A stretch of DNA of 63,629 nucleotides, the filler included, from Hausera hauseri (lineage: Eukaryota), in assembly GCA_046269625.1 (NCBI GenBank). It is 12 parts of 12 records of this genome, joined end to end, with 100 filler letters (N's around TTAATTAATTAA, not from the genome) between each part and the next. Parts side by side here need not be neighbours in the genome. Positions count along the whole stretch, not along the records: positions 31,893 to 37,845 come from JBJURY010163865.1; 11 more parts are not named here. One strand, 5' to 3'. Both the position numbers and the translations under genes were made by a program. Under the pieces are notes generated by a model, which was not told the origin of the DNA, did not search any database, and worked only from the letters and a program-made list of their open reading frames with translations. Below, piece by piece: positions 6,509-59,496 of this stretch (positions are counted from its first letter, which is position 1; each line of letters opens with the position of its first letter).

Positions 6509-6864
6509 TGTTCGTCAGTCTTTGGTTGTTGTGAAATCTCTTAGACATAACAAACCAAATCATTACGTGGTAACCTCAGGATCTCTTACACGTCGCCTTA
6601 TACAATTATATCGACGTCAAAAAAAGTAGTGCATCAAGTGAATTTTATGACAAATTCACAATTCGATTTCGTATTTCAATCATTTTTCGATCTCTCTGGC
6701 ATAAAGATACCCGATCAAAGTTCACTTACTTAACGAAATTGACAGCAACCTAGAGCAATTTGTTAAATTTATCAATCGAGCAATGAATAATAGGGTTTAC
6801 CTACTTGACGAATCGACCGACAAATATTAAATTTGTTTTAATAATCATACAAAATTTTGAAAAG

Positions 6865-9765: not shown

Positions 9766-10859
9766 CGAATGTTTGTTTGTTAAAATTGGTAATGAAAAAA
9801 GGTGATAAAATATGGAAATTACTGAAAGTCAAACCGCAAAACAGTTATAGAATTAGAAACCGCTATGATGTATCTTATTTGGATTATAATCTGGAAACAA
9901 GAACCGTCCTTTATGGGGAAAGGAGGACACTGGGCCAACCCCCCCCCGCCCAGGAGTGGAAATCAATATTCNNNNNNNNNNNNNNNNNNNNNNNNNNNNN
10001 NNNNNNNNNNNNNNNTTAATTAATTAANNNNNNNNNNNNNNNNNNNNNNNNNNNNNNNNNNNNNNNNNNNNTGAATGGAGTAAATAATTTCCACTACAGC
10101 ACTTTTACGACAATATGAAATGATGCAATTTACGGATTAACCATTTGATAAACAATATTTGAAAACAATTTCGACAAAATAACTTGGTCGAGCGAAAGAA
10201 TCTACATTATTTTCAACATCAAGATTTCAGTTCGGCGTCAGCTTTTCGTAAGATAATCCAGTCAATTCAATATAACATTTCGACATGAATACATGCTGAT
10301 TCGAGATGTCTTGACGAACGAAAATGTCATACGAATAGTAACTGTAAACATATTGTAATTATTTTAATTCTAAGTATTTTTTTAGTTTTCATTTGATATA
10401 TATAATCCATTAAATCCACGAAATTTGGATTAATTCACATTTAAATTATCAATGCCGCTTTTCTGATTAATATTAAAACCAAGAAATATAATTAAGATTA
10501 AATTACTCTTTTGATTATGTCTCATCACAATCACGATTACCCTACAAATAACGGCGAATTAATCGTATAAAAATTATCATAAAGACAGTTACATTCAACT
10601 TAAACACAGTTACACAACACGGATTATCTGACTTTTTACATAAGACTGCATTTTAAATAAAGAGTAAGCCGCTGTCAGTTTCAATTAATGTAGTTTCCAG
10701 TCTTTCTTCGAACCAAAATGTGGAGCTTTTTTTTCTCGACGTCAATGTTTCTCTGATATACTCGCCGTATCTCAGACCACCACAGACTGATGTCGTTGCT
10801 CCGGTATCCACTTTTATGTCTTCACACTCGGAGTATGGCAAGGATACTTTTTTAGTGTC

Positions 10860-25771: not shown

Positions 25772-27187
25772 TTAAAGTCTTTGATAGATACAATTTTGCC
25801 ATACCCACATATGAGCTTGTTGAATACCAATGCTGTTTTCAGCATATGGATGCTGACCACTTATCAGCATATGTGGTACTGGTGTGGAAGTTGGGATTGG
25901 CAATGAGCTTCTTTGCTCGCTTTCAGTCAGAGACCAGTTCGATATTGATCCTGTTCCGGATATTCTCCATGGTCTTGCCAAAGACCGAGTTGTTGTAAAG
26001 CTTGAACTGGTCCTTCTCAAAATCGTTCTTGGCATTAGTCCGCAGCTTGGTATTGATATCTATGTAGGGCTGCAGCCACATGGACTGGCTAAACTGCAGG
26101 GCTCCTTGGATCTTGGTAATATGAAGTCCATGTCTAACTGCCTGATGGAGGTTGATGTAGTGAACTACATATCTCTCCTTATTACCCAGATGGCAGGGCA
26201 GCTTTCGCTGCTTTCCATGGGGCGAAGGCCTGCTCTCAGGGAGGAAAGGCAGCTGTTGATGCCTTGCGTGGATGGAAGCCGGATATTTTATATCCACCTC
26301 CAGTATGTAGCCCGTATCTCCAATGGGATCCAGGACTAATATAGGGATGTTTTCAGAATTCTTGATCCATTTGAAGTTATAATACGGCAATGAGGCGCTC
26401 ATTGCATATCCATACATGTTGTTGGCATCCAGGTATGATATATATGAGGATTCCTTGGTGAGTCATACGGGGTCATATACTTGTTGTTCGCCTCACTATA
26501 CCAGTGAATGGCCTGGCATATTCCGTTTCTAATGCCTCTTTCGATCATAAAGATCATGTCGTAATCCTTAATGATTTGCAGCCTTATGTCAGTATATATC
26601 TGCATTGCTGCCCAGCTCATCCCTGTAGCCGAGAAGAAATAAGCCGGATTCAATGCATGACTTTTCATTGTAACATTCCTGAATCTCTCAAAGACGTCCA
26701 TCAGCAGCCGCACGTCCGTCTTGAGGTATATGTCGCTGTATTCCTCTATTGTTCGGCATTGGAATGCATGCCAGACATTTTGGGCATAGTGGTAGTCAGC
26801 ATCATTGATATCGCAATCAGAGAGGATATTGTAATATCCTTCTTGTCCGCATTGAGGTCTTATCCAGTGTTTCCCATGAAGTTATATAGTCATAAGGAAA
26901 CACGCCTTTCCTTTTTACTGGGTCAAAGGTAGTGAGGAAGAATCGCTTCGTCTCCTTGAGTTCTTCTGCAGGGAGGTTCTTCACTAAACTGCCCAATGAC
27001 GAGCTCATGAAGCGGAAGCTGTCTATGAAGCGAAGTTTGATGAGGCCTTCATGCTTAGTGAAAGTAATATACTTCTCCTCACTGTTTGGGATTACATCAA
27101 TGTTTCCTTTAATGTTGCCTAATTCTCGGACTATGAAATGGGAATCATAGCCACTGAGATTATGAAACACTACAGGCACATATGTAC
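25772..27187 (-). pseudogene. Polinton pPolB internal fragment (third element)
   Basis: PVVFHNLSGYDSH, FIDSFRFMSSSL, RKGVFPYDY, YLKTDVRLL.DVFERFR, YLDANNMYGYAM, FKLYNNSVFGKTMEN and VGMAKL. Confidence 0.92.
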
Positions 27188-27486
27188 NNNNNNNNNNNNN
27201 NNNNNNNNNNNNNNNNNNNNNNNNNNNNNNNTTAATTAATTAANNNNNNNNNNNNNNNNNNNNNNNNNNNNNNNNNNNNNNNNNNNNGACAATGAGTAGT
27301 TCTTTTTAGACACTAGATCAAGGGCACTTGGTGTAGACTGGTTGTACGTTCAGCTTGAACACGCAATTTCTCAATGTTTGCTACGTTGATATTCGATTTG
27401 TAAACACAAAATGTGCTAGTAAGTCTGCAGATAAAATCCGAACATGAATGTCGGGCCAATTTTGTCGAAAAATTTTTTTTGAATTC

Positions 27487-27597
27487 TTTCGAGGCGGAAG
27501 ATCAACGGCCCACCTATGGGCTCGACGCGGCGATAACGGACGCCCGGCCGTGCCCGACTAAATGGGTCAAAGGGCACCGGCCGCTGCGGGCATCACA
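27487..27597 (-). repeat. Family A LTR head, apparently nested into another LTR copy
   Basis: TGTGATGCCCGCAGCGGCCGG..TTCCGCCTCGAAA abruptly interrupts the repeat shared with 30510-31130. No PPT in front of it. Confidence 0.7.
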
Positions 27598-28342
27598 CTG
27601 ACAGTTTTGTAATTTTGTCTTGCCGTCTGGTGAAATGTTTGTGCATTTTTATTCCAACACATTTGTCAAGGAACGATAAAATTAACTGATTGAAACGGCT
27701 AAATAGACTCTTCAACAGTGAACTAATGCCACCACCATTGGTGACTAAACTTTTCCCATTAACGCGCACATGAATTGATTCCAGAAAACCGATGGATGGC
27801 GACAAATGTAAAAAACACCAGTGATTAGAAGTTCTGTAGATAATTAAATCCAATTTGGGAGATTTCAGAAAACTAGACGCCGTCAAAAGTAATTAATAGC
27901 ACAATTCCTAATCCAGGGTATTTCGACAACGGCGACACGAATCTGTTTCAGCCAATTCATCGGACAGACATTGAATGAGTTTCAGTTGATGAAAAATCGT
28001 ATAAGTATTCTTTAATAACAAATTTTAATAGCCCTTTTAATTCAACTGGAATTCCATTTTCTAATTTAATATCATATCCCGCAGCAAAAACATTATCAAA
28101 CAAAAAACAATTTTTTGAGAAATTTTTAAGATCATTTGCCGAAAGTTGAAATTTGCAAATTTTTGATTAAATATTTAAACAAAGTTAATAAGACCTATCA
28201 GAAATGACTTGTTTTATATCGTTCCACGGAAATTTTCCAGGAGGAAGATCTGATCCAACTATGGACCCAACGTAAAGGCGACGGATGCCCAGCCGCGTCC
28301 GACCACATTGGCCAAATTTCACCAAACGATGTGAACACCACA
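27598..28342 (-). repeat. Family A LTR copy (head + coding-like cargo)
   Basis: Follows the PPT at 28343-28352 and aligns colinearly with ~30505-31250. Confidence 0.75.
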
Positions 28343-29152
28343 TTACCCCATCGTAACAAAGCGAAAACTATAAAGATCAAAATAGACGGAAAGAAAAAAT
28401 CACTAAACAAAAATTGTCTGTGTGAGGTGGTCTTAGTGTGGACATGACGTTGGGTGACTTCTACTGATTTTTCACTGCTATACTTGCTAAATATGACTCT
28501 ACGTGTTTTATCTGTATGCGATGTGTTTGCTTGCCGAATTTGAAGTTGGAGAAAAAAATTGTGAACAGCCTGTAGAGGTTGACGGTGTGTTCCGCCAGCC
28601 AAGCAGAACGTACGGAAGGAGTGTAGTCCAACTGCGATTGGACTCAGCATGGATTTTGAGAGACGTTTTCATCGTTCGGTGAAAGCGTTCGAGAAGGCAA
28701 TTCGTTTGAGGATGATATGGTGACGTGTGAATGTAATTAATTCCCAATCAATTGACAAGAGCTTTAAACAGGTAGGATTCGAACAGTGGACCTTGTTCCG
28801 AAATGATGTGTCGAGGTGATCCAAACCTGCTGATCCAAGTGCGGATGAAAACGTCTGCAATGGTTTCTGTGTTGCTGCTCCGAAGCAGGACAGCCTCTGG
28901 TCATCGCGTGGAACGGTTAATCATTGTGAGGATGAACTGATGGCCGTCGTCTAAGGGTAGTGGGCCTACAAGATCAATGTGAACAGATTCAAAACGAGAC
29001 GTGCAGGGAAAATGATATAAAGGTGGCTTTAAGTGCTTAGTAAATTTGTAATTTTGGCATGCCACACACTACCTACCCATGCCTGTACGTCAGAGTGCAT
29101 CGAGGTCCATACTACTTGGCGTTGTAAGAGTCAAAAAGTGGCCTTGGGACCA
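28343..29152 (-). mobile_element. Family A Gypsy integrase core (internally deleted element)
   Basis: GPKATF, CVACQ, VHIDLVGPLP, IISEQGPLFES, HTSPYHPQTNCLLERFHRTMK and GWRNTPSTSTGCS. Confidence 0.9.
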
Positions 29153-31250
29153 CGATTATTATTGACCAATTCCATTGGATTCGTAACGATAATTTGATAC
29201 ATCAGCATCCAAATTCAATTCACCATATCGTAAAAGTGGCGTAGTAAAAAAACTTAAATTCAACTGTGTACAAAATTTACTGTTTATTAAAACAAAAATT
29301 TTTTAGCAGTGATAATAATTTGACAATAATATAACATTTCGTGATAAGTTGGAAGGATAAATATATATATCACCAGACACCAGCAAAAACGAAATCAATG
29401 GAATTAAAGAATGGAGAAAGCCGAAAAGTCGGTAACGCATATTTTATTTACACAATTAAAAAAATGCGAATACAAATCTAAAGAATTATTAACTTCTTCA
29501 ATTCATCAGAAAATGCTACAGCAAATACGAAAGACTGACTGACAATGAAAAACGTCCTCGTTTATCGAATATTAAAATATGCAGAGCTGAGTACAACAGA
29601 TTATTTTGGTATGTATGAATAAATCAATCGATAATGACAGTCTGATTTGCAATTGTAATAATAAAAGCATCGGGAATTTTATTTACAGAAACAAAGAAAC
29701 ATCGAGAGGAACGGAGAACATTTATAGATTTACAACTGTCGTAACAACGATCAGAAAGGAATTGGCCACGTATTTCAAAACCTCGTAAAACGTCGATAGT
29801 GCAGCGGTTTTAAAACACAATTTTCAACAATTCTCGAACTACGTCAACGGGATTGACGAAAAATAAATATTTCATATCCAAAAGAATCTCAGAGATTTTT
29901 CGGATCAGCAGACAATCTATCACAACACCGTCATAACAACGCTTCAAAACTAAGCGGAAGACAAAACATTCGTGTCCGTTGTAATTGGAAACGGCTGGCA
30001 ATAACGGACTGATTTGTCGGGACACTGAATCGGACGATTATCGATTTAAACAGTTTGTTGTGTTTATGACCGGGAACATTTATTTCAATTACCGAGCCAA
30101 CCTGTTCGGCCGGTCCCAGACACAATGCATTGTCCTCGATATACCGACTGAGATTCAAAAGACAATATGGAAATTTATCTTTAATTGTCTGATCGAGTAA
30201 ATCCGTATCGGCATACCACAGGAAAATATCTCGAAAACAAACACCGGATTCGAGACACCAAAGAAGGAATTGGAAATGTTTCGATTCGTCGTGGAAAATG
30301 TCGGCGAACTCGTACTTCAAAAACTTCGTCGTGACTTGCAGTAATGAGCGCAGTAATTTCTTTAAATTGTCCATCGGGATTTCTAATTCAAACTCAGCGG
30401 TTTTCTATCGGAGAGATTCGTTCAACAGAACGGACAGCATGTCGTTGAACACTCGGCTGGCACTGACGATAATCTGATTATTGTTGAGATACTCATCGAT
30501 TGGTCACTAACAGTTTTGTAATTTTGTCTTGCGGTCCGGTGAAATGTTTGTGCATTTTTATTCCAACACATTTGTCAAGGAACGATAAAATTAGCTGACT
30601 GGAACGGCTAAATAGACTCGTCAACAATGAAGTAACGCCACCACCATTGGTGATTAAACATTTCCCATTAACGTGCATATAAATTGATTCCAGTCAACCC
30701 ATGGATGGCGAAAAATGTGGAAAACACCAGTGATTGGAAGTTCTGTCTAGAATTAAATCGAATTTTGGAAATTCCAGAAAACTAGACGCTGTCAGAAGTA
30801 ATTCAGAGCACAATTCCGAATCCAGGGTATTTCGACAACGGCGACACGAATCTGTTTCCGGCAATTCATCGGACAGACATTGACTGAGTTTCGGTTGATA
30901 AAACATCGTATAAGTATTCTTTAATAAGAGATTCCAATAGTCGTTTTAATTCAACTGGAATTTCATTTTGTAATTTTATATCATATCTCGCAGCAAAAAC
31001 ATTATCAAACAAATAACATTTTTTTGAGAAATTTCTAAGATCATTTGCCGAAAGTTGAAATTTGCAAACTTTTGATTAAATATTTAAACAAAGTTAATAA
31101 GACCTATAAAAAATAACTTGTTTCATATCGTTCCACGGAAATTTTCGAGGCGCAAGATCGGGCTCAACTATGGACCCAACGCGGCGGCGACGGATGCCGA
31201 CCGCTTCCGACATCATAGGCCAAAGGGTACCGGCCGCTGTGGGCACCACA
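29153..31250 (-). repeat. Family A LTR copy (~2.1 kb) containing a long decayed ORF of unknown function
   Basis: Begins with TGTGG after the PPT at 31251-31265. ORF pieces 30694-30906, 30493-30678, 29931-30374 and 29810-30025 join by frameshifts. Confidence 0.6.
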
Positions 31251-31792
31251 TCACCTCCCCGTGGCAAAGCAAAAACTATAAAGATCAAAATAGACGGAAA
31301 GAAAAAATCGCTAAACGAAAAAGTGTCTGTGTCAGCTGGTGTTAGTGTGGATAAGATGTTGGGTGCCTTCTATTTATTTTGCCCTGCTACACTTGCTAAA
31401 TGTGACTCTGCGTTTTTTGTCTTTATGCGATGTGTTTGCTTGCAGAGTTTGAAGTTGGGAAAAAATTGTGTAATTTTGTGAGTGTTGTGTCGTGCGAAGA
31501 TGAGTCAGAATAAAGAGAAGAAGGTGAAGAAGGAAGAGAGATTCTTTAAGACGGGTGGTTAAAGGTATTCAAGAGGGTGTTAGAAGACGAAGGAATGATA
31601 AAAGGTGTAGTGGCGGATGAAGGAAGAGAGGTGAATGTTGGAGTAGAAGTTGAAATTGTATTAGACGGAAGAGTGGAAATGAAAGATGAAAGAGAGGCAG
31701 TGGTAGAGACAAGAAAAGAGATAGGGACAGAAGTAGAGAGAGGAGGAAGTTGCGAAGCGGAAATGAAAGAGGTAAAAGACGATGTGTAAGGA
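31251..31792 (-). mobile_element. Family A Gypsy 3' tail + PPT
   Basis: S/T/P-rich tail, RRVTFSKCSR and PPT CCACGGGGAGGTGA, as at 5780-6393. Confidence 0.8.
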
Positions 31793-31892: not shown

Positions 31893-34800
31893 CCTGTGAC
31901 TGGATTTACACCATTCTTCATGACTTATTGCAGAGAAGCCATATTACCGACTGATTTAGGAACAATATCGTATACTAGAAATCCAGAAGACTTAGAACAG
32001 AATTTCGTCGAAGTGTTACAGATTAGATTACAAAAGTGTTGGGAAATAGCAAAAAAATTATCTCAAGACTATTAAGAACAATTTAAAAAGCAACATGATA
32101 AGAAAACTAAACCACACGATTTAGAACAATGAAATTGGGTTTATGTACATTATCTACCAGACAAGGAAGGCATGTCCTTAAAAGTTACTATTACTGGAAG
32201 AGGACCTTGTGAGGTTATTAGAAACACACCGACTACGGTTTATATTAACAAAAATGGTAAAAAAGTTGTGCCAATACATAGAGTTGTTAAAAAGGAAATA
32301 AAACCAAATAAACTTTATAATCCACGGCCAAAGAACGTAGACCGGAAACAAAAAGTGGCGACGACTTCCACTATAATTGCCAGATCGATATTATATGTAC
32401 AGATAGTTTCAGCACTATCATTAATCATTTCAGATGTTCCAAAAAACAAAGCAAACAACCCTTACTATGAGAAATAGCAACTGCGGGGACATGGTTGGAT
32501 ATGGAGAATTTAGAATCATTAAGAGTCTACGACATTAATTGGAATATACCATGCGCCTAGTTTAAAACAGATAACCTTGTCAAGGGTCATGTGAAGTTTC
32601 AGATACGATTCATTGATAGAATCAGAAAAATATTGAAAAAATGTAACTTTCCCTATGGAGCCCAACAATAGCGTTGTAAACTAGAGTTTGAACGATTATA
32701 CGAATAATACTTCAAATGTTTTATTATCATTTCCTTGCAGCCCAAGCCTACATACTCCCACAATTCAATATAGAAATGAAAGTAATACTTCAAAACTAAT
32801 ACTACGGATAATACTTCAAATGTTTTATTATCATTTCCTTGCAGCCCAAGCCTACATACTCCCACAATTTAATATAGAAATGAAACTAATCAAGCAAAAC
32901 TTAACGACATCATTCGAAGTTCCAACCGTCACAGAAAAAATTTGGAAGACAACATGATTGGGATTTTGTAGGACTTAAAGAATAAATGTATCCAAACTGA
33001 AACCAAAAGAAGATTGTCGGGCGATAGTAAAATCTCTATTCGATTCCTTCTGATAGCAAAGTTAGCTCCCTCAGCGAATTACTGTTACATCGGACGAGAT
33101 AAAGCTAACTTTATTGTAAAATTCCAATGAAACACGAATACAGAATACAATTCTATGTATATGGAATCCGACAGGAGGAACCAAGCATTTACCTGAAAGG
33201 ATATAGCCCGGAAATTGAGATATGGAAAATTTCACTGGAAACGACAAGAAAGCCAACTACTCGAATGCGTATCGTCACCGAGATCGAAACTTCGAGTAAA
33301 ATGTCAGAAAGAAAGTTAGAAATAATGCCTGTTAAATTCTCGATACATCACGATAGAATAGCGCTTTACGTTGAAGAAAAGTTAAACTATGATATTAAAA
33401 TTAAATGTCGCACTCGACATACTACACAAGTTGTAATATTAAAAAAGGATAGTCAGGAAACCGAATGTAAGCTTTTTCGACCACAATACAACTATGCAAT
33501 TAAAGTTACTGCAGAAGGTAAAAAGCCTAAAACCTTTACGCTACAAACTCGAAATTCGAGTAATGGAATATAAAGATACTAGTACCAAGAACACGATTAT
33601 TACAAAAAATTCAATTGAGCCAAATAACTCACCAATAATGTCTGTTTTTGGTTCGTCAACCTTCCTTCTCATTATAATAACCGCGACAGTTTTTTTAGTT
33701 TCCAAAAACTGTACTAAGTGACGTCAATAATAATCGGCAGGAAAATATACGGGTAAAATGGTACGAAGATCAGATATATCATAGAATAGATCGAGGCCTA
33801 TCTTATCATCAGACAGAGAAAATGTTTTGTTTTAAAACGGTGATCTATCTTAGGACTGACCTTTATTTTTATTTCAGAAGCCTAAGTATGGCCGAAAAGG
33901 GGGAAATTTCAGAACGCAGTTCGAGATACGGAAGAGACGATTTCATGCAGCAGAATATTACGGTCCTAAACCTTCCATCGAAAAGTTTGTATCGTCAAAT
34001 TGGAAAAAGCCTAAAGAATAAAGCATATGTAGAAATTGACCAGGAAAGTCAAATACCTAATGGATTAAAATTGGGCTTAGAAGAGAATCGGATAACCCGC
34101 TTATACGCGATGAGAAACTAAAAGGTTGCACGAGCATACCTGTTGAGAGATTTGATTCCATATGAACCGAGACATCAGCATATATACATACATGTCGCTG
34201 ATGGTGAAATCCAGTTCAGAATTGTATGACAGCTCTTGAACACTTAAAGGAGTAAACAATGAAAATTTGGCACCTATGAACTATGTTGCTGTAGACTCAT
34301 GGAGTGCGCTTTAGAGTTTAGAATTGCCGAAATTTGAACGGCAATTATGTTCGAATTAACATTACGTACCGAGATAATGAAACCCGTACAACCAATATTA
34401 TTAATCCTTCGGAAGATGAAATAGAGCAGGAATGTTAGAATTTTATCAGTAAACTATGGACAGAAAGAAGATGGATGGTATATACCAATAGAAATATCCA
34501 TCAGAAATCTAAACGCAGACAAACAGATAAACAAAATAACTGAACCTAGAATCAAAGCAAAGGACACTTTTCAGATGTTACAGGAATAATAAAACCACAG
34601 CTTGAAAAGGGCAAGGATTTCCTCGAAATACAAGATGACATAAGCCATTGCCTGTATGGAATCACCGTAGTAGGATATAAAGTGCATGAAACACTAGAAA
34701 AATTAAGAATCCCACAAAAATACATAACTATAATCCGCAAATTGGGCCGTAATCCAACAATTATAAGACAGAGAACGATTTAGTGAAGAAGAAAGGATGT

Positions 34801-35385
34801 TTACTTTCCCCAGTTTCACAGGAATCCTAATTCAAAATGATGTTAGAAGCCATGTATGTCGATTATTTCCGTTTCCCTACGCTATTAACAGCAAGCCAGA
34901 GGACAAAACTAGTAAGAGATATTTATGTTTATCTACTATAGGACCATGAATGGAAGCCAAGAAATCCCATACAAAATTAAATGTCCGATAGTAATACAAA
35001 TATTCTGATGCAGAAAGTTCGATGAAGATTCAGCGAATACCCCATACTTAGACAGATTGGTCCACAGAAGGATAACAGTTTTCAAATTACTGTTCAAACC
35101 AAGCTAATCGAGCCACCCAACAAATTAAGTCAATCAAAAATATGAAAGAAAAACGAATACAATCAACCAGTCGAGGACAAATACAACAGCAGAACTCCGC
35201 TATAAGATCGAAAATCTCAAAGAATCTTGATCAGTCCAGGATCATGCATAAACAAGTTCCCCACCAGCAAAAACAAAAAAGTTGGACCCACAGAAAATAG
35301 AATAAAAAAAAAACAGAAAATACAGAAATAGAAAATTTCCCTTCTTGAATATATAAATAAAAAGTAAAATAAGGCTAGCCCCATC
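31893..35385 (+). mobile_element. Decayed relative of the enveloped Gypsy: integrase C-terminus, post-integrase type I membrane protein and exonuclease-fold accessory ORF
   Basis: VTGFTPFFMTYCREAILPTD and GRGPCEV; hydrophobic IIARSILYVQIVSALSLII; FN3-like CKLFRPQYNYAIKVTA; TM SVFGSSTFLLIIITATVFLV; and PIEISIRNLN..VTGI..VVGYKV at ~34443-34780. Confidence 0.8.
32700..32885 (+). repeat. Near-perfect ~82-bp direct duplication (period 104)
   Basis: ATAATACTTCAAATGTTTT..AATATAGAAATGAAA occurs at ~32700-32781 and ~32804-32885. Confidence 0.9.
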
Positions 35386-35387
35386 CA

Positions 35388-36243
35388 TCAATGACAAGCA
35401 TTATTGTCAGGTGAATATGCTGGTTGCTTCCTCACTGTAACTTTCTTGCTTCGAAAAAAATCTGCAGTTTTATAAGATCCTTGGGGTTTGACTGTCATGT
35501 ATGATGACACAGTTTTTCCATCCAATAATCCGTCCACCACAGTGTGTAAAATTGTGTATATTCTGAAGAAATGCAACATAACGAGCACTTGTGATTGTTT
35601 CTCCTTATAATAAAACTTCGAAATAAAAATTTCTTCCCAAACTGATGGTCATAATGACCATTGCTTTTTTGTCTGACAGCATGGAATCCACACATTACAC
35701 GCGTGTCATGTTCAGGTTATCATACAATATTTAATGAGCAGAGCCAATACTGACAGAGAAATTTCTTCATCTGTTACATGGAGGTCATTATTCAATAAAT
35801 CTCGAACAGTTCCAATATTTTTGGAGTAATGCTTGTTTCTGATCGCCTTGCACGTTGCTCATTCGTTGCGGAAGCCTCACTCTTTGAATAATGCCGATAT
35901 ACTGTTGCTAGTGACGGAGAATCATCATCCCATGCATGGACAAAATATTGATGAATTGACTGTGCATAAGAATTATTTCTTTTCATTCTCAATAAAAAAG
36001 CGGTAAATTCTCGTTCACAATTCATTGCTAATATGTTATGAATATAAGACTTACACCTGTTATATGGTGAGAGCAATGTTTACAATAAAATTACGTTTCC
36101 AAGAAATTGTCCAATCATATTTAAATACACGCACACAACAGCTGACATGCATAAATAAACAACTACGCACACAGAAGCTATTAGTTCAGTGTGCTAGTTT
36201 GCATTGAATATTTTTCTCAAAACTTTTTGAATTACCTAAGTGT
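35388..36243 (-). mobile_element. Decayed mariner/Tc1 element
   Basis: HTH region (SPSLATVYRHY..RARR), VTDE and KQPAYSPDNNAC (YSPD motif). Ends at a TA at 36243-36244 that cuts the adjacent element's cytoplasmic tail. Confidence 0.8.
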
Positions 36244-36244
36244 A

Positions 36245-37845
36245 TCGTATTTTCCTTCCATATGTGACCATTAAAATTACAACTATGCCAGTACCGGATA
36301 TAATAACGAGTATCCACCAATCGTGTGAAGTACGTTCAGTTGTAATTTGTGCAGAAGTAGTTATTCTAGGTTTCTAATCTTCGTCGTTGTACCTTATGTG
36401 TCGATACCGATCTGCAATGGTTAACGTCTTTATTTCCACTAGTTTCGAGTTATTTTGTGTCCTTATTGACACTAGGTCATTTGTATCCGACGTTAGGCTA
36501 TCACAAAATTATATTTATTTTTCAAACAATTGATTTCAATTTTCTTATGGGCGCTAGTACATTTTATTCCAATTCCATGTTCCCGAGTTTCTTAAAGAAT
36601 CGTTATTTTGATACGATTTGTATAAGCTTTTAATTTGAATCCCACTAGTTTTTCTTTGAAAATGTTTGTTTGGTTCTTTAGTTGTTTGGACTACTCGTAT
36701 TACTTCCCACCATTAAGGGTTAGTGTCCGTGTAGTGGGTGTAGTTGTTGGTATTGTCTTAGTCGGAATAAATTTCTTTTGGTCATTTTCGACTCGGATAA
36801 GAAATGGAAAATAAATGTAGCGTAATTGGATGCTTTTCTGATTTGGCACATGTTGATATAGGGAGAGGCGGAGTTCATAGCAGTAAAGTGAAAAAAACGT
36901 ACAGCACGTGACTTTGTGTTCTACTTAAATAACAGTAAGGTAATTGGGGCAAGGATGCACCTATTTGTCATAATAATACACTGATTTCAGAGTTTGGTGG
37001 CATACGTTGTATAGTCCCAATGGTTTCTGAGGATCAGTGCCCAAATATTTGACGTTATCCACTAGTAATCGAGTAATAAATTTTGTGCTGAATATTATTT
37101 CTGACCTATCCGCATTTTTTATGCCTTCATGTGTTGGAATGTGCATTTCTTGCTTGTGTTCCATCTGGTAATAGTGCCTATAATTATCAGTCACACAATT
37201 GTATTTGATAGGTATAGTTCATGTTATAATCGAATTTACAACAGGTCAAATTGCGTCCATCTGTGATCATACTGCCAATTGATTCCTTCATCGAAGAGGT
37301 AAATTTAAAATGAACTTAATCCGGGGAGTACTGGAAAATGCGCCATGAAACAAATGCCTGGTAAGTCTGTCAATATTAGTTATAATGGTATGTCTAACTA
37401 GTTCAAACTTTACGACGCGTATTTTTGTACGATTATTAGCTGCTACTGTTACTTGCAAAAGACATGTCAACATTATGAACAGAGAGATACAGATGATACT
37501 ACCCAATTTGTGGTGAAATCTGTAGCTTACTAGTTCCTGATTATCTTGTTTTTGGCACAATGCAGTAACTTTTGGTTCTACCAATTCTGGTAAAGTTAGT
37601 TCTCCTTGTCGTACGAAATCATTATATGACATGGGTGCCCGTGTAACTCGTTGTACTGATACAGCTTCGTATTTATTTGATTTTTTTGACTGAAAAGTGT
37701 TTGTGGTCGTATATCTACAATTTTGTACAGTCTTTGTTCGGTACGTCTTAATTTTAGTGACTCCTTTCTTAACAGTAGGATACTAAACCATTACGTGATC
37801 GCCAATCTTATAAGTATGTGGACGTGCTTTCTTACTGGACTGTTT
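36245..37845 (-). mobile_element. Third decayed relative: integrase C-terminus followed by a signal peptide, ectodomain and TM
   Basis: KARPHTYKIGDHVMV.YPTVKKG (IN tail); LGSIICISLFIMLTCLLQVTVAA; Thr-rich PTKTIPTTTPTT; CDSLTSDTN; TM WWILVIISGTGIVVILMVTY followed by GRKIR (~36245-36320). Confidence 0.72.
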
Positions 37846-37945: not shown

Positions 37946-40900
37946 ATATTTTAGATCAAATTCCGAATTGGCAAGTAATTCCAACGTGATATTGTTGAGA
38001 TGTGTTTTACATGAAATTGATAATTGGTGACGAGGATTAAGATATTGTTTCAATGAAATCATGATAATGACACATGTCAATCCCTTTCCGTAAAAATCTA
38101 GAAATTTTACTGGTCTTAGGTTAGCTTCCGTATTTTTTGCAGGACTACGCAAAACCGATGAATTCAGTGAAATTTTTTTTAATTCTCTCAACATGGTTTA
38201 GTTTGGCTTGTATTGTCATTCATTACTTCCAACGTCAATCCAGGCTTTTCAACGATTATTATGAAACAAACGGTACAAATAAAAATACAGTAATTGGTAG
38301 CTTGATAAACAACCAAATAAGAATACTGATTTTATTTGACATGATATGGACTGTTCGGCTGCCAATCAAACACAGGACAAAGGTAAAAGACAGGATGAAA
38401 ACCGTGTCGGCCTAGCTGCACCAAATGGTGACCCGATTGCCAAAAATGGAGGGCCATATCCTAGACCGTAGCACTACATAACCCCCCCCCTGCAAGAAAA
38501 GAAACTATAAAGCAAAACAGAAAGGGACAAAATGAAAAAAAGTGTTTAGTGTCTATTGGGTTTTGGTGTGTTTGAGGCGTTGTATTCTGTCTACGGATTT
38601 TTCCCATTTTAGATACTAAATGTCACTCTGTATGCCTTATTTGATTGATTTGTGCTTGGCTGTTGAACTACATTTTGTAGTAGACGTTTTGTAAGATTTT
38701 CTGATTCAGTGCGCTGCGTTGCTTGTGGTGAAGACGTTGAAAATGGTAAAGAGAATAAGTCAAGCAAAAGAGGCGAAGAAACTGAAGGCAATGAAACAGA
38801 AGACAGAGAGGGAAGAGAGGCGTGCGAAGAAAACGGAATAAGCGAAGTAGGTACAATAAGCGGTGCGGAAGATGAGAATGATTTTATGTGAGAGAAAATG
38901 GGTTGATGAAACGGAGCAAAGTCGTGGAGAAGTTTTGAGGAAGAAATGGAAGGAATGAGAGTTGAATTGGGATTGGAAGCAGAATCGGCATCCGGATTGC
39001 CATCAACGAAGAAAGCGGGTTTAAGATTCGAAATGTGGACGTTGTAGGGTTTGTTTGGGCGTAAGATGGTAGCTGTATGAGATAAAAAATGAAGGAGTTT
39101 GTATGGGCCAACATGCTGAGGTCAAAAACCCGAAGGCGATTGATCCTTCAGCCATTCAAACTTGGCTGAGTATAAATCCTTCGGAATGTACGATTTGTTG
39201 TTGTTAAATATGCGGCAGAACGAGTCTGATATGACCTCAACGAAGTAAAACTGTGCCGGGCGAATGTTTTCATCTGTCGGATTGTTGTCGAGGTCAGAAA
39301 TTTCAAACAGAGTCCGTATTGGAGTCCCAAAAAGTGCCTCGGCTGGAGCACAACCCGTGGTGGTGGAAGTTGTGTTGCACCACCCGACTAGAACAAATGG
39401 TAGGATTGATGTCCAATTGCGATGATTGTATGCCAAGATTGTTAAAGAAATTTTCATTGTTCGATAGAACCTTTCAAGGAGGCCATTTGATTGTGGTTGA
39501 TACGGTGTTGTATAGAAATGTGATATCCCCAAGAGTTTAACAAGCGATTTAAAGAGCTCCGATTCGAACTGCGAACCTAGGTCCCTTATGATATGTTGTA
39601 GGCAGCCAAAGCGACTGATCCACATTTTAATGACGGCATCGGCTACTGAATCAGTATTTGTTGAACGGAGAGGAACGGCTTCAGGCCAGCGCGAAGCACG
39701 ATCCATCATAGTGAGAATATGTTGATACCCGTTGTCAGAAGATAAGGGGCTAACGAGATCAAGATGGACAGTATGAAAACTTGATGTACAGGGAAAATGG
39801 TAAAGCGGCGGTTTAAGATGTTTGTTGACTTTGAATTTTTGGCAGGCTACTCATTCCTTAACCCAGCCCTGTATATCTGTGAGCATTGATGGCCAAACTA
39901 CATTACGTTGAAGCAAGCGAAACGTGGCTTTCGAACCTGGGTGATGAAGTGAATGCATGCGAAGGAATGCTGGTTTCTGCAAAGAAGGAGCAAGAATGAT
40001 TTTTTATTACCGGGGTTAGATGTATCGTATGCAATAGCATCAATGATTTCGAAGGATTTGAAAGAGCTAAGAATATCAGCAGACGACTGATTGAGCTTTA
40101 GAATTTCAGCAGAAAATATTGGTTCAACCGTAATTGAGCCGACCAACCGCAACAGAAAATCCGCGACCAAATTCTCAGTACCTGAAATATACTTTATGAT
40201 AAAACTAAATGTAGGTAGGTACGATATCTGTCGTTCCTGCTTCGGTGATGGCTGTTTTAGTGACATGATGTGCAGCAGATGCTTGTGGTCGGTTTGGATG
40301 ACAAATGGACGAGAGAGGAGTAGATTCTGGAAATGTTTTACTGCCAAAACAATGGATAGTAGCTCACGATCAAATGTTGAATATCGGCTTTCTGGCTGTG
40401 TGAGTTTTCGAGAGTAAAATTCTGAAGGTTCATCCATGTCGTTGCAAATCTGGTGTAGTATTGCACCAGTAGCTGTGGTAGGGGCATCGGTGGTAAATAT
40501 CAGCTTCACGTCGAGTTTTGGATAGGCCAGTATTTCTAGGGTTTTCAGGCCTTCGCATGAGTGATCGAATTTGGTTACTAAATCGAGAGTTCACTGGATT
40601 AACTGCCTTTTCTTTCCGGATGAGAGATGTGCGAAAGGTGCTGTATTCTCAGAGCAATGCGGTCCATATTTATAGGCGAAATGTAGTGTGCCTATAAAAC
40701 TCTTCATATCTGTAGTGATCGTTGGTAGTGTTGCATTTTTCAATTGCTTCAGTCCATCAGTTTGTGGAGAGTGGCCGTGAGGAGTAATGATGTGGCCTAA
40801 GAAACTGACACGTTTCTGAAAGAAGTTGCACTTGGAGAACTTAACTTGTAAGATGTTATGATGTAGGCTGTGAAAAATAATTCGGAGATGTTCATAGTGT

Positions 40901-43600
40901 TGTTTGACGGAGTTGGAGGCAACTAATATATCATCGATGTAGGGATGAGCAAAATTAAGGCCTGAAAGAACGGTGTCGATGTGGCGTTGAAAGATTTGGG
41001 CTTCGTTATGTAAACCGAATGGCATGAAGATGTATTTGTAAAGGACAAATGCAGTAATGACAGCAGTCTTTGAAATGTCATCTGGTGCAACGGGAATTTG
41101 ATGGTAGACTTTGTGCAGATCTATTGTGGAATAAGTATAGGTGTTGTTAAGACTGTGCAGGATGTCCTTTATCAGCGGTAATGGGTAAGCATTTATGACG
41201 GTTAGATGGTTTATTTGACAGTAGTTGCCACATGGTCGAAAAGTACCGTCTTTTTTGCTACTACATATAATGGTGAAGCTCATGGTGATTTTGACCTCCA
41301 AATAATACCAGATATTTCGAGTTTGTTAAACTCTAATTTCACGGCTTTTCGTCTACGAGGAGATAATGGTTTAAACTTTTGTCTGATAGGTCTTTGGTGT
41401 TGGGTCAATATGTTGTGATAAGTTTTTGATAGGGGCTTAAAACTAGAGTCCTTTTTGATTATGAGAGGATTTGAGATTGGAATCTAGTGATAAAAACGAT
41501 TGAGGCTTATCATCAGAGAAGGTGGTGGCTGTGATTGGCGAAGAACGACCGACATTGTCACTGTTAACATTCGATTTAACCGACTGTTTTAAAATCGACT
41601 TCGATATTTGAGATTTAATTGAAAAAATAGATAAATTACTAAATGTATCGTTTTCAACCGACGGACAATTTGCTAAGCTCGCATATGAGCTTGCAGACGA
41701 AGTACCTATTGAGCTATCAGAAAGACAATTGTTAACGTTCACGACGGCGTTTTTACGTAGCAAACAGACATACATGCAGTCAACAAGCAGATCGTATGCG
41801 GCCAAAAAATCTGAGTCGATTACGGGCGATTTAATATTGGCCACGTGGAATTTCCAGACGAACTTGCCTGGTAAGTTTGAAAATGTAAAAAACAGTTTCA
41901 TGGTACCTGCAATGCGCAAAGGTTGACCTCCGGCAGTGAAAAGTGGGGAGAAGAAACTGCAGTGGATGTAGGGACAAAGGAAAAAGGAAGGGGTGAAAAG
42001 GCAGCTCCTGAATCAATAAGAAAATCGATATGTGAAGCATTGCTAGAGAACAGTGTAGCTTTTAACAGAAAAACTGCGGAGGCGGTGTTAAAACGGTTAG
42101 AAGATTGAGCGGTATTTCCTATGCCAGAATGTGCCGTGATATCTGGCGGCATTTCTAGTTTTTTAAAAATCGTGGAGGAAAAAAAAAGAACGATAAGAAG
42201 AAGAAGGAGGAGGAGAAGGCGAAGAAAACTGAAGTTGTTTTTGTAATGTTTACATCACGGAACACACGATCTGGTTACAGTGAAATTTTGTGTGATAAAT
42301 GCAGAGATTGCTGCCACCGCCAAACGCTCGTCATAAAATTTACATCCAAAAAGACATTTCACTGTGTTTCTACGAAATTTATTGTGATAAAAACAAATTA
42401 TTCGTCCGCCCGAAAATTTAGAACGAAATGAGTGCTTGGAGAGGTTACGCTCACGCAATACACGAGTCTCACCTCGCCGAGACATAGCTATATTACTTAG
42501 TTTGGCAGTGATGGCTGAAACTGAATGTTGCAGATTATCGTATTGTTTCAGCATTAATTGTATTTGCTGTGCCAAAACAGTCATATCTATACGCTATGAA
42601 GGATGAGTGGTTGCTGCGACTACTGGTTGTGAGTTGTTAGTTTGTAAAATTTCGAAACTTTTATCAGCCAATAGGTCACGTTTTTCAGTCGCCGTAGAGT
42701 CGTCAACGACAGTAAGGAGAGCTCTGAGGGAAGTGAGCAATGAGGAGAGGAAATAACGACTAAACAAGTCTGCTTTGTTAGTGAGGGTAACGCCAAGAGC
42801 ACTTAAGTGTAAAATAGAGGTCTGTAGAAAGTCAGAAGGCTTTTGATTGCCTATAGCATGTTCGTTAAAGTTCTTCTGTATTATAATATCAATCGATAGA
42901 TAGGTAATATGAAGAACAGACTCATAAGGCATGTGATATGGTGTTGAAGAAGTACGGATATCAGCAAGATTATTGATTTAATGCTTGATATTTGCTGGGA
43001 AAAGAAGTAACAAGCTGTCGGCGCGCAAAAAAGAATTGATAATATGATTGGCTTTAAGCCATTGTAAATGAAATTGTAGTCAAGTGTGGCTTGAAGTAGA
43101 TTTATCGAGGAAAAACTCTGTACAAGGAAGGTTATGAGAAGCAGATTGTGCAGATTCTGCACGGCGAGGACCACATCTTGTTTTGGAGGAATTTTCAGCA
43201 CAAGGATCAGGGTCCGAACCACCCATGATGTGAAAGTAAAGTGTGAGATGAATGATCGGAGAAGCGAAGGCAGAAAGTGAGTTAGACGGGTGTAGCACAG
43301 AATTATGGTACGACAAGTGAAAGACGGAAGTGTGTAGGAAAGAGGAGAGAGACATATAGAGGGTGTAAGCAATGTCCGTGTTACTAGTGTGTATGGTAGA
43401 AATGTGTTATTTTTAAAAACAAAAAAGAAAGGGATTGAAGAGTGATTCCAGTGGCGTGTTGTGGCGCACGGATCACGAACGCTTCCAGCTTTCCGACCAG
43501 ATGATGTTCGGGCCGCATAGCCGAGCGGACAGTCTCCAAAACCGATCTTTAATGGCCAGTGTTCATGGCAAACTGGTTGGGTGCTCCGTACATGTCAATA
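37946..43600 (-). mobile_element. Near full-length decayed family A-related Gypsy (gag, PR, RT, RH, IN, PPT, 3' LTR start at 38478)
   Basis: CFYHNKF..C..GC gag motif, FLIDSGAAFS, RPCGNY..YPLP..MPFGL..YIDDIL, TTDAPT..ELL..TDHK, WPEAVPL..ERFYRT, and PPT GCAGGGGGGGGGTTA followed by TGTAGTG. Confidence 0.9.
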
Positions 43601-48026: not shown

Positions 48027-49276
48027 TTACTGGTCCAACGTTATGGATACGTGCATATATTTGCCCGAGGTTCTTGACTTGTACCGGATTGCCTCGGGCT
48101 CGTATACTTCATCGTCTAGTACTAACGTTTCATCCAACTGGATTCTTCGTTTCCTTCCGCCTTGAGATGTAGTTGGTGTTGTTCGCACCTGATTGGAAGC
48201 CGCGCTCTGGGTAATGTATTCGTCCGTCCATTTTAATTGTTTGTATATCGACTGGTAGCATTGAGCTAACGCAGTACTTCTGAGATTAAAGCCCTTTGTA
48301 TCGTAAAATTTGCGGGCTAATTCTTTGTAGGTGTTTGTGGATAGTTGGTACCGGCGGATGACTTCCTCGTGATATAAAATATCACGCACTCCTGCAATCC
48401 GTCGGATGGGGCATTTGAGATGGTTTATTACCATCTCTATCACGTCGGCTCCAATTACTATTCTGTCTGTGATAACTTCGGTCACCTTTCGATAGAATTC
48501 AGTTGGATCGGTTTGATTATTGATATTCAGTTCCGTGAGACCTGTGATGTGCGTATCAAAGTTGTTGATACGCTGTCTCGGGGTAATAATTCCATAGAAT
48601 AATGTGTCACCGTTGAGATTTAAGACTGAGGCTTCGATCGGCTGGAGTTGGTTCCATTGGTCGTAGGCCAGGTTGACGGCTGCTACGACCATATCTTTGT
48701 CAGACACTTTGTCTATTCTGCGATAAGGAATAGTCTTGTACTTTACATAGTCGGGCTCCGGCAAGTGAAAGCATTTACCTTCAGGGAGACTGGGATAAAA
48801 TTTTTCGTTTTTTATTACTTCCAATGCTAGAATCACTCGATTGGTACAGGAGCGAATTTTAAATATATTGTCTTTTAGAAACGAGAGATCGAAAGCAAGT
48901 CCGTGCTCAGAATCTAAATTTATCAGATCACCTTTGATGGAAGTCTTTCTATCCGTTGTCTTGATTTGAATTTGCCCTACAATATTGTACACATTCATCG
49001 AGTGAAATCGATCAGGCAGAATTATAATGTCAGTTAGGAGGAACGAAGTCGCTTTAGTTATTTGCATCAAGGCCAGAGATCGATTGGCCATACTATAACC
49101 TTTCAAATTATTCGGTATCTGCTGTGTCTGGGGATAATTCAAGCTGGTCATATTATCATTATGAGAGACATAGTATTGATTGGAAGGATTGGCGTTAATG
49201 ATGTGGGTCTTGGCATTACTATACCAATGCTTCGATCGATGAATATTCTGTACTTGATGGAGGGTTGATGCAGCAA
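48027..49276 (-). CDS. Accessory ORF of the enveloped Gypsy, with a DEDDh (REX4/ISG20-like) exonuclease-fold domain lacking canonical catalytic residues
   Basis: Open frame of 437 codons (48027-49340). PIEASVLNLNGDTLFYGIITP..THITGLT..VTEVITDRIVIG..VRDI..YKELARKF at 48229-48695, and a basic GRKRR near the C-terminus. The start is placed at a putative splice acceptor (AG 49277-49278). Confidence 0.7.
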
Positions 49277-49460
49277 CTGTAAATATAAAAGTTAATGGGT
49301 TGTTTATCATGAGACTAACATACAACACAACGGTTATCAAACATACGAAATAGGTAATCGTTGTGGTTTTCTTATTGTTTTTAGCAGGTGAGATAACTTG
49401 ATGTCGTTTAGTTATCCTTTTTATTGGGGTTGCATCTATTGCAATCCCTAACCATAACCG

Positions 49461-52400
49461 TCAGCTGGGATTGTCGGTATCTAACGGGTTCGTTAGATTA
49501 CGCATATCAATTCTAACCCAGATCCTGTTTCGTTTGAGTCGCCTACATGCGAATCTGCTTACTATTATTACTATGATTATCAACACAACGGGGGTTATGG
49601 TCCCTATGCATATCGTTTCTAACCGTGAATGCTTGTATACTGTTCGTGTTGGTTTAAATGTTGTCTTATGATTAATCGTTTTGGTTCTATTACGTACTGC
49701 TATGTCATACTCTATTTTCGTTATTGCTGTCATTATTTTGGTAGAGGTTACTCTACCTTTATCGTCTAGCAACTGTAAAATTATTGTGTATTGGGTGTTC
49801 GAGTCTAGAGCTGCACATGGTGCTACCAAATCATCCGGAGTTATTATTCCTTTAGCAACAACAGTTTCCTGTTTCTTACAAGTGAATTTAATCTTGATAA
49901 AATCTAGGTCCGGTCTGACTGAAATGATTAATGCAGACGGGGCTGCTATTATAGTAACGTTCTCCCATATGGATCGTCTTGTCCGATAGTAAGACGAGTA
50001 GGGTTTAACTAAAATAGTCATTTCCTTTTTATCCGTCGAAGGTTGTTCAGGGGATGCTATATTTTTCTCTGGTACATCATTATATTCTTTATGGTTTTTA
50101 TATCGTATATACATAGTCGGTCCTTTTCTATGCATCTTATTCCTTAATTTTCCGTATTCCTTTCGTGACAATGTGTAATTTACCTCGTATATTTTACCTC
50201 TTGTTACATTGCAGCAGACCTGTGGTCGTTCTTCTGTTATTTCACATTTCAACGACTGTTGTTCTTTTCCTATGTCTTTTATGGATATTGTTATCCATCG
50301 GATATATTCTAATTCTATCAAGCTCCTAATTTCTAAGCAACTCCGTCCACTTTTAAATCCCATTGGTTTTATCTTTACCTGTCTGAGTATTATCTCATCA
50401 AGCAGCGTTTCATTCATTTCCCGTCTGTTTGGGACTCGAATATACTTATAGAATTTAGTATATAGACTATGGTAATAGCCTCCTTGTTTTTTTATGAGTG
50501 TAAGATACACTTCATGTGTTCCTGAAGTATCTATTGGACATTTTATTTTATTCATGGATGATCGTACTAAGCAATCGTTCTTTTGTTCGTTAGAGTTCTT
50601 CTTATAACCGTAAATGGGGTCTGTTTGTATCCTTATAATATAATAACTAAGCATTCGTCTTGTGGTGTACCAATAGATGCACTTTTGGCCTTGCATGGAA
50701 TACGTTATTTTGTATTTCATACTTTTTAACCATAGGTCCTCGTTAAGGGCCGTGGCATGTCGTATTTTGGCTTGCTCAATTTCTTGTCCTGTCATCTGAC
50801 CAGCTGTCTGAGGTAATACAAAGATAATTGCTAACAATAGACTCTTCATTGTCCAATACATTTTATAGATAGCTTTTTCCGTTCTTACTTTTTCCTTAAT
50901 ACTTAAAACCGTTTCTTTTTCGTCTTTTCTTAACTCACTTCTTCGAGCTGCTGGTTTACATCTATTTATATGAACCTTCACCGACGCATTATTCTTCTTC
51001 AAACATATGTTTGGCAGACTTACTTTCTCTACTTCATAAGGACCCTTGTAAGGTCTATCCAGTTTAGAGGTTTTACCCTTTTTTATCGCTGGGGAGTATA
51101 GCATAACTTGGTCGCCTACTTTGATTTTTGGCTGTTTAGTCTTCTTATCGTAGTATTTCTTGTATTTAGATTTATACTCCTCTTGATTTCCACAGATCGT
51201 CTTGTAGGCTAATTGAAGACGTTCTTGCATTAGTTGTTTATAGTTTTCCACCTCCATTAAATGTGAGACAGGTCTCACATTAAAGTCCAAATCAATGGGT
51301 AATCTTGCGTCTCGTAAATACATTAGGTAGAAGGGAGTTTCCTTGGTGGCTTCGTGTACTGACGTTCGGTTTACAAATACACACGCGTTAACATACTCGT
51401 CCCAGTCGTCTTGTCTGGTATTTACTACTGTTTGTAGTTTCCCTTTTAAATCTCCGATGTACCTCTCAACTAACCCGTTATTCTCTGGGTGGCCTGGTGT
51501 GGAACGTAGCTTCAATATCTTTAAAATATCATAAATTGACTGCATTACAGTTCCTGTTAGATTTGAGGCCTGGTCAGTTAAAATAATTCTTGGGGCTCCG
51601 TAATTAAACACTACATTTTCCACAAATTTCTCAGCAATTGTGTCTGCCTTCATATCTGCCATTGGTATGGCTACCACCCATTTAGTAAAGTAGTCAATAA
51701 AGACTAAGATATATCGGTTTCCGTTCCGGGTTAGTGGTAGTGGTCCTGTTATATCCATTGCCGTAAATTCGAATGGTGCTGGGGGATTATCCCATACCTT
51801 TAATGGTGCCTTAAATTTGGATCCGGTGTTTTTACGTGTGGCACATAACTTACAACTTTCACACCATTCTTGTACATCCTTCATCATATTAGGCCAAAAA
51901 TACTTTCGTTTTAATTTATTGAGCGTCTTTCTTGCTGACTGATGTCCACCAAGTAATCCATCATGATATTGTGTTAACAATACTGGTCTATTTTTCTTTG
52001 GGATTACTAACGCTGGTCCGTCTTGGTGAATATAATATAGAAATCCATCTTTTTCTTCATATGCCTCACCAAATCGTGCTAAATGTCTCGCTAATTCCTT
52101 ATCTTCTGGTAATACCTTATTCTTTATGAAATTTCTAATTACTTTTATTTCGAAATCTTCCTGCTGGTTTTGTTTAATCTTTTCTACTGATCCGTCCATA
52201 CTCCAGACGGCTGCTACTACTTCTTTCTTTACCTTTGGATTCTCCGTCATTCGAGATAGATAGTCCGCATTGGCATTTCTCGTTCCAGGTTTATACTGGA
52301 AATTTAGTGTGTACGGTTGCAATTTAAGAGCCCAACGTAACAATCGGCTATTTGGGTTTTCGTGTTGCTTCAACCACTGTAATGGTCGATGGTCAGTGTA

Positions 52401-59204: not shown

Positions 59205-59297
59205 TCCAAAAGGTATATTTTCTTCTCTTTGATATATTGTCCCTTTCCTGGTAGTTATTTTGCTTCTGTTTATCTAAAGGTCCTAACAAATTTATAG

Positions 59298-59396: not shown

Positions 59397-59496
59397 NNNN
59401 NNNNNNNNNNNNNNNNNNNNNNNNNNNNNNNNNNNNNNNNTTAATTAATTAANNNNNNNNNNNNNNNNNNNNNNNNNNNNNNNNNNNNNNNNNNNN

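Follow-up and report, generated by a model that had tools for sequence, protein, structure and literature searches.

Do the env-bearing retroelements of invertebrates infect cells, and how are their targets chosen? A small contig of Hausera hauseri (assembly GCA_046269625.1) bears on this open question. It is part of the window, by which we mean the whole stretch of DNA that we analyzed (63,629 nucleotides [nt], 12 parts joined by N filler), and it carries the remains of two retroelements, A and B, in which the integrase runs on into a candidate membrane protein. A third, intact element, C, has a post-integrase extension of the same kind. Our best reading is that all three come from one Ty3/Gypsy lineage of the Burro-like GAG-ENV-POL type, with only defunct 3' remnants left of A and B, and that their extensions are very probably homologous and form one family. 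A and B are merely fossils; their value lies in the evidence they give of an old, diverse trait inside one genome.

Elements A (plus strand) and B (minus strand) make up one entire 5,953-bp contig, JBJURY010163865.1 (window 31893-37845, between N linkers), and C lies on a different contig (window 47914-59396). The contigs stop within the elements, and only the 3' ends of A and B are present. The original prediction saw no obvious nucleotide identity among the three, and blastn found none longer than 60 nt at E ≤ 1e-4. Because pairwise protein comparison is nearly silent, the three window copies are insufficient to prove a family. The idea that the lineage is old and diversified, and that its surface proteins are homologous and diverge fast, held once relatives from outside the window were used, in profile searches and shuffle tests.

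Relatives were picked in a metagenome scan by a nine-residue integrase motif common to C and the polyprotein P0005; the extension was not used for picking. In six of the 15 loci so obtained (L004-L007, L009, and L010), the open frame continues past the integrase into a signal peptide, an ectodomain, and a transmembrane segment, and L003 and L015 have this layout with a broken frame; L013 ends differently, and the remaining six were short, broken, or chance matches. A search with env yielded P0004 and P0005, the latter of 3,865 amino acids (aa) with four cluster members and a C terminus that runs from signal peptide through beta-domain, Ser/Thr stalk, and transmembrane segment to basic tail. 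In all, the signal-ectodomain-transmembrane architecture is intact in C and seven relatives, and the positions of signal and transmembrane segment are kept in eight of eight extensions.

We cut 13 units of ~85 aa from C and five relatives and built a window-free profile from the 10 units of the relatives. In a six-frame search of the whole window, the top two matches of this profile were in A (33379-33519, E 4e-5) and in C (49892-49731, E 3e-4). An unrelated match (E 0.22) came third, ranks 4 and 5 went to two collinear pieces of B, and rank 6 to another B domain. Frameshift-aware scores were 61.5 for A, 65.9 for B, and 66.7 for C, against a maximum of 51.6 among 78 window tiles, and were reached by 0/300 column shuffles and 0/600 triplet shuffles. 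The frameshift-aware profile check proposed for the three extensions came out in favor of a membrane-proximal domain common to A, B, and C (0/600 shuffles for each). In a control without hand-cut units, A was kept (E 6e-4; 0/120 shuffles), as was C (1/120).

A second open reading frame (ORF2) downstream of the polyprotein is, judged from sequence, the strongest tie of A to the lineage. The homology of the ORF2s of A and C was matched by 0/100 shuffles (z 9.5-11.9), and a profile free of window sequence and of P0003 found A's ORF2 at E 9e-10 and 1.5e-8; its score was 214, versus 62.5 for the highest shuffle. Membership of A and B follows from the architecture and the shared domain, joined for A alone by ORF2. 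A almost certainly belongs to the lineage; B in all likelihood does too, on weaker support.

Several observations weigh against homology. The extensions of A and C compare at chance level as proteins (60/200 shuffles), and when A or B was paired with one extension at a time, 0/20 comparisons beat all 200 shuffles; for B versus C, the score was matched or beaten by 2/100 and 1/200 shuffles. The unit borders were hand-cut around a motif first noticed in the window. Uncut alignments weaken B (2/120 shuffles, and 10/120 with a two-sequence profile), and hmmsearch with the whole-extension profile does not find it. In a held-out test, 7 of the 13 units passed, chiefly membrane-proximal ones; both distal units of C failed, so that just the third of its three beta-rich units passes. 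Finally, L003, L007, L010, and L015 have a Cys-poor ectodomain, mutually related and unrecognised by the unit profile, so the ectodomain may have been replaced on more than one occasion.

An alternative is that FN3 receptors of the host were captured separately for each of the three extensions, which would then share a fold and not a retroelement ancestor. Such an origin would suit units that are 9-20% identical, the two ectodomain types, and the failure of the integrase tree to place A and B and of the ORF2 tree to place A. It is very improbable given that the position and the flanking signal and transmembrane segment are the same across elements, that the elements have in common a two-Cys pattern unseen by Pfam fn3, that A has the lineage-specific ORF2, and that C's extension has no host homologue among 1.84 billion representatives. 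C's extension also had no homologue among proteins of 1,797-5,721 aa, scans of IMG/VR gave no matches, and the ESM Atlas gave no usable match to A's open fragment.

The features of the three elements, and of the relic between A and B, are as follows.

31893-32290, plus strand: integrase C-terminal region of A, cut by the contig start (tblastn E 3e-10 over 31896-32255; family profile E 8e-18; stops at 32073 and 32130)
32373-32435, plus strand: internal signal-peptide-like hydrophobic stretch of A, modest (Kyte-Doolittle hydropathy [KD] 2.04 over 32373-32417), integrase frame kept
32436-33300, plus strand: decayed distal ectodomain of A, with a stop at 32475 and a 104-bp tandem duplication at 32699-32901
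33301-33570, plus strand: predicted membrane-proximal FN3/Ig-like domain of A, conserved Cys pair, open frame (profile without window sequences E 4e-5; 0/600 shuffles)
33542-33721, plus strand: short stalk, transmembrane segment (about 33635-33700, KD 2.02), and short tail of A, in a frame that differs from that of the preceding domain
33945-34956, plus strand: decayed ORF2 of A, with 10 breaks (read as X), comprising a conserved beta-rich N-terminal part and an ISG20-like DEDDh exonuclease fold
35388-36244, minus strand: decayed relic, probably of a mariner-type transposon, whose edge truncates B's cytoplasmic tail
36245-36433, minus strand: Thr-rich stalk, transmembrane segment (about 36322-36260, KD 2.17), and basic tail of B, stop at 36376
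36434-36640, minus strand: predicted membrane-proximal FN3-like domain of B, two collinear hidden Markov model pieces, stop at 36594, frameshift at about 36527
36641-37437, minus strand: decayed distal ectodomain of B, with a weakly supported domain at 37339-37190 and a second near 36900 by motif only
37438-37506, minus strand: internal signal-peptide-like stretch of B (KD 2.35)
37507-37845, minus strand: end of the integrase C terminus and linker of B, cut by the contig end (family profile E 1e-5; tblastn E 0.003 over 37845-37756)
49461-59273, minus strand: intact 3,269-aa ORF of C, Gag-(Bcl-2-like)-glycoprotein B (gB)-type Env-protease (PR)-reverse transcriptase (RT)-RNase H (RH)-integrase (IN)-extension (Pfam)
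49464-50861, minus strand: extension of C, 466 aa, with signal peptide, three beta-rich units, stalk, transmembrane segment, and basic tail
48027-49460, minus strand: ORF2 of C, 476 aa, ISG20-like exonuclease fold with a degenerate catalytic motif

The integrase C termini, the opposite orientation and decay of A and B, and the signal-like stretches after the integrase were all as originally described. A's signal stretch is collinear with C's in a frameshift-aware alignment, and B's integrase region has a stop at 37785 and frameshifts near 37750-37660. The motifs that had been quoted as FN3-like ends are present (33115, 33466, and 36505), but only the CKLF domain of A and the CDSL domain of B are statistically supported on their own; A's CKIPM motif has support solely within the whole-extension profile match at 33121-33516 (E 6e-4). 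Both elements have the transmembrane segment that was proposed, with a basic tail that in B ends a few codons past the membrane at the edge of the intervening element and in A consists of just two Lys before a stop at 33719. The original prediction missed that A runs on into the decayed exonuclease-family ORF.

A's distal ectodomain probably comprises two further beta-domains, at the level of motifs, neither individually significant in the domain-profile test. B's distal domain at 37339-37190 matched C with tblastn (E 0.014; 1/200 shuffles) and a profile that includes C (E 0.009), and a Thr/Pro-rich linker lies near 36774-36720. No ORF2 was found downstream of B (score 42, chance level), the 3' side of B having been lost where the intervening element cuts in. 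That this element is a mariner relic, as had been claimed, is likely, with weak matches (Pfam Transposase_1 E 0.15; SETMAR E 0.04; Mos1 E 2, below a spurious top match). It has a PAYSPD motif (35406-35423), and a search for a pair of terminal inverted repeats in it found none; its ends may resemble mariner terminal repeats.

What kind of domain is shared? The membrane-proximal domain of A is predicted to be a seven-stranded FN3/Ig-like beta-sandwich. AlphaFold 2 with a 13-row alignment gave A's open domain seven strands (predicted local distance difference test [pLDDT] 77), Foldseek returned mostly FN3 domains (template modeling [TM] score 0.5-0.63, best E 2e-3), VIA gave FN3 rows at Z 6.6-7.6, a range that the tool rates as common, and ESM features of C's extension point to FN3-plus-transmembrane proteins. 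This assignment has to be set against the lack of any Foldseek match at E ≤ 0.001, viral structures included, and the middling fold scores; a best VIA match to a designed Ig protein (Z 8.9); and an ESM recognition value for C of 1825, under the bar of 2300. PF00041 (fn3) matched 0 of the 13 units, and Fn3_Dep-1 matched one, from a relative, under the curated cut-off (E 0.0012). We use the label "FN3-like" because the units miss the FN3 profile at the curated cut-off. Profile A3 had no match among PDB sequences, and single-sequence folding of the whole C extension gave no usable model (pLDDT 36.6).

Is the extension under selection, and of what kind? Identity between C and its relatives is 49-64% in RT, 47-53% in the IN core, and 35-39% in env, and C's extension is alignable in just one of seven relatives (25% identity). 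The ratio of nonsynonymous to synonymous substitution rates (dN/dS) rises from 0.07-0.11 in pol through 0.21 in env to 0.31-0.49 in the extension (three pairs, with dS of 1.2-2.6, near saturation; two further comparisons were saturated). By these measures the extension is the fastest-changing part of the element, yet a constrained one. The original prediction saw a fast-evolving surface protein, consistent with host-receptor or immune conflict; the extension is indeed faster than pol, but the bootstrap intervals of dN/dS stay under 1 for each of the three pairs (upper bounds 0.45, 0.80, and 0.69). Changes among four near-identical copies (P0005-P0008) mostly fall outside the fold: 17/340 extension sites vary, versus 0/1,469 in env and RT-RH-IN, and 16 of the 17 are in stalk, transmembrane segment, and tail, with eight clustered in one copy. 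These data do not show positive selection, and conflict as a driver of the extension's evolution is plausible.

Two runs contain related sequence. In X1, which may be the source sample, 26,140 contig pieces align to C, and others match A and B exactly; none of the X1 pieces listed bridges the junctions between A, the relic, and B. Among 39 X1 variants classed of the 40 shown (4,273 in all), the extension had 0 synonymous and 5 nonsynonymous, versus 20 and 14 elsewhere, a small, selected set that amounts to a hint.

The variation among the four copies bears on the idea that the extension is merely carried along, neutral and functionless. As a passenger would, it varies more than any other region there; it is also open, in frame, and intact in topology in C and seven relatives. 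With the frame open across elements of 49-64% RT identity and with dN/dS below 1, we regard it as maintained, and we give a functionless passenger hardly any credence. A related possibility is that the signal/anchor cassette is the useful part, tethering or releasing Pol at the membrane site of Env-linked Gag assembly, and that the ectodomain is a loosely constrained spacer. The fixed signal and transmembrane positions, an ectodomain that varies in length (333-527 aa in all) and type, and a dN/dS of 0.3-0.5, compatible with relaxed constraint, would all agree with a tether. A spacer is harder to square with a folded domain and conserved Cys pair that persist in very divergent elements, or with variation at 1/111 sites of the folded domain versus 12/145 of the stalk in the four copies, and we consider the tether improbable.

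How could a polyprotein yield a membrane protein? At its end, a signal peptide is followed by one to three predicted FN3/Ig-like domains and then by a stalk and an anchor that would span the membrane. From this topology, and by comparison with known viral polyproteins, the internal signal after the integrase would restart translocation into the endoplasmic reticulum, signal peptidase would free a type I glycoprotein held lumen-out by its basic tail, at a 1:1 ratio to Gag, Env, and Pol. Met is not consistently found at the signal start, so internal cleavage is favored over a separate start. We consider it likely that the extension is a processed membrane protein. Its ectodomains have 2-9 N-glycosylation sequons each, and the tails vary widely (23-94 aa).

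We speculate that this second glycoprotein reaches the particle or cell surface and gives attachment or tropism alongside the gB-type fusogen. Herpesvirus gB works with separate receptor-binding glycoproteins, and the pairing of a class III fusogen with a second type I beta-sandwich glycoprotein recalls that arrangement, as a functional analogy and not a claim of homology. We give a little less than an even chance to a surface glycoprotein of this kind, one that attaches to host cells beside the fusogen. The fuller proposal, a two-glycoprotein entry system made from one polyprotein (a conserved gB-type fusogen and an exchangeable FN3-like tropism protein, with the ISG20-like nuclease as a linked accessory), is more tentative. 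The case for attachment is lessened by the position of the 5' parts of A and B, which are off the contig with their env not visible, and by the fact that several class III fusogens bind receptors unaided.

The same family and the same processing could instead give a host-modulating accessory on the producing cell, such as a receptor decoy, a superinfection block, or an immune dampener. The elements bear Bcl-2-like, putative ubiquitin-like, and ankyrin domains and an ISG20-like nuclease, cytokine-receptor domains are among the ESM and VIA rows, and one of the widely differing tails has a PPSY motif. Adhesion-type FN3 rows tie with the cytokine-receptor rows, however, the tails have no conserved signaling motif, and no ligand is known; we think a modulator somewhat unlikely. 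Whether for attachment or for host manipulation, a family-wide second membrane protein is a concrete, expressible candidate. It accounts for some of the large unannotated share of Burro-like polyproteins, and it gives a retrotransposon polyprotein the layout of an enveloped RNA virus's, with two internal signal-anchor cassettes.

Which known elements are closest? C's Gag has a Ty3 capsid and zinc knuckle, followed by PR-RT-RH-IN in the order of the Ty3/Gypsy (Metaviridae) layout, and long relatives are alike. Its env (residues 876-1516) is a Monjiviricetes/gB-type fusion glycoprotein (PF24664, E 3e-89). Six intact members group together in an RT tree (100/100), with two window elements only as the outgroup. 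The integrase C terminus was dropped as a clade marker: its tree leaves A and B unresolved, and L013 scores 204 versus 164 for A on the profile, so the integrase clade check that had been suggested was uninformative. L013 has a very similar integrase C terminus and no extension, followed at about 700-900 by what we take, from its motif, to be a chromodomain-like end.

Burro/GYPSM1, planarian giant Gypsy-like elements, are described in the available text of PMC6431247 as having Gag, ubiquitin-like, Bcl-2-like, and ankyrin domains and an in-frame env. C resembles them in its single giant ORF, in an env in frame between Gag and PR with PR-RT-RH-IN after it, and in its Bcl-2-like domain, and some relatives of C add ankyrin domains and putative ubiquitin-like ones. 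The ORFs are shorter here (3,184-3,865 aa versus 4,873-5,140 aa), and the BIR and MATH domains of Burro/GYPSM1 had no Pfam matches in C or the scanned relatives. The same text, figure aside, mentions neither a membrane protein after the integrase nor an ORF for an exonuclease. GAG-ENV-POL errantiviruses of the herpes simplex virus/gB type have been catalogued in Platyhelminthes, Bryozoa, and Nematoda (PMC13524379, available portion); their ORF order and env class match C's, and the env of Smed_errantivirus_2 (supplement) resembles C's by eye. For these errantiviruses, chromodomains are reported C-terminal to the integrase. The text of that paper and its seven supplements contain none of the words "fibronectin," "FN3," and "exonuclease," and the extension may well be present, unannotated, in its deposited sequences. 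The rotifer Juno/Vesta long terminal repeat (LTR) elements, as far as the available part of PMC5408684 goes, have a DEDDy exonuclease or a small transmembrane ORF3. They are alike in having an additional downstream ORF with a DEDD-superfamily nuclease and small membrane ORFs. Their nuclease is DEDDy/RNase D-like, whereas ours is ISG20/RNase T-like with an extra N-terminal domain and often degenerate, and their transmembrane ORFs are separate, whereas here the membrane protein is fused to the integrase and stands beside a true env. The available parts of PMC13238120 and PMC13326412 held nothing relevant. The GAG-ENV-POL layout is already published, and the FN3-like second protein was not found in print; we found no description of it in the literature, although a Repbase entry, Grohme 2018, figures, or the eLife repository could contain one.

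Companion genes are widely shared. A gB-type env lies between Gag and PR in C and in all four relatives that reach upstream of the protease (P0005, L005, L007, and L009; in L005 the env is seen and Gag is beyond the contig), which answers in the affirmative the suggested test of whether full-length relatives carry the Gag-PR glycoprotein. All six in-frame loci have a downstream ORF2, which is cut by the contig end in L004 and double in L006. C's ORF2 is 57% identical to P0003 (family profile E 9e-34). The ORF2 family alignment matches ISG20L2 at E 5e-22, and PF00929 matches ORFs of L005, L006, and L009. Compared by eye with the DEDDh motifs, the catalytic acidic residues appear to be present in 3/8 full-length ORF2s and replaced in 5/8, C's among them, and in A's. 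Placing A as the sister of C by this degenerate motif was unsupported, A being a long, unplaced branch in the ORF2 tree.

Other observations concern the ORF2s. The tandem paralogues of L006 (1857-3242 and 183-1511, minus strand) have a degenerate nuclease motif in one and an intact-looking one in the other. A beta-rich N-terminal domain of ~130 aa with an IPN motif is conserved in all ORF2s (48800-49260, minus strand, in C) and matched nothing in Pfam or PDB. A hydrophobic stretch opens both C's ORF2 and P0003, and in L009 a 222-aa, coiled-coil-looking ORF (11375-12040, plus strand) lies between polyprotein and ORF2.

Within the polyproteins, the Bcl-2-like domain before env in C has a Pfam E of 1.8e-4, under the curated cut-off, and a BOK E of 0.0097; P0004 has one as well (E 0.0015), and Pfam Bcl-2 matched none of three other relatives, although they are alignable by eye. 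Ubiquitin-like matches were found in L007 (UBX, E 2.7e-4) and L009 (ubiquitin, E 0.018), with no Pfam match in C. A pair of units, the first helical and the second ubiquitin-like, is seen in the window at 57351-57773 (minus strand), in L007 at 9494-9901 (minus strand), and in the L009 polyprotein at 500-900; the pair sits between Gag and the Bcl-2-like domain and is twice repeated in several relatives. The helical unit had no Pfam match and may resemble the TFIIS N-terminal domain. A conserved stretch of ~90 aa between PR and RT, where Burro has a dUTPase-like domain, had no Pfam match.

Between integrase and signal peptide, P0005 has an additional aspartic-protease-like domain (residues 3340-3440), and the L006 polyprotein has an extra protease-like domain with ankyrin repeats (1112-1669); protease-like domains number two or three in P0004, P0005, and L005. 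The Cys-poor repeat type of L003, L007, L010, and L015 fills the ectodomain of a well-supported subclade (99/100), in which replacement of the surface domain is possible on sequence grounds. Tandem repeats of 55-96 bp occur in or 3' of elements (L010 at about 5977-6560 and L006 at about 8353-8496, both as oriented, and L008).

Elsewhere in the window, other elements of an env-less Gypsy lineage have Ser/Thr/Pro-rich post-integrase tails (38609-42977, 59449-62903, 5372-6238, and 28198-28860). Decayed frames like family B DNA polymerase at 1463-4474 and 25923-27239 (both minus strand) are, by eye, probably Polinton/Maverick relics. A direct repeat of ~1 kb (27596-28556 and 30505-31465, 81-89% alike and 2.9 kb apart) possibly represents the LTRs of a deleted element.

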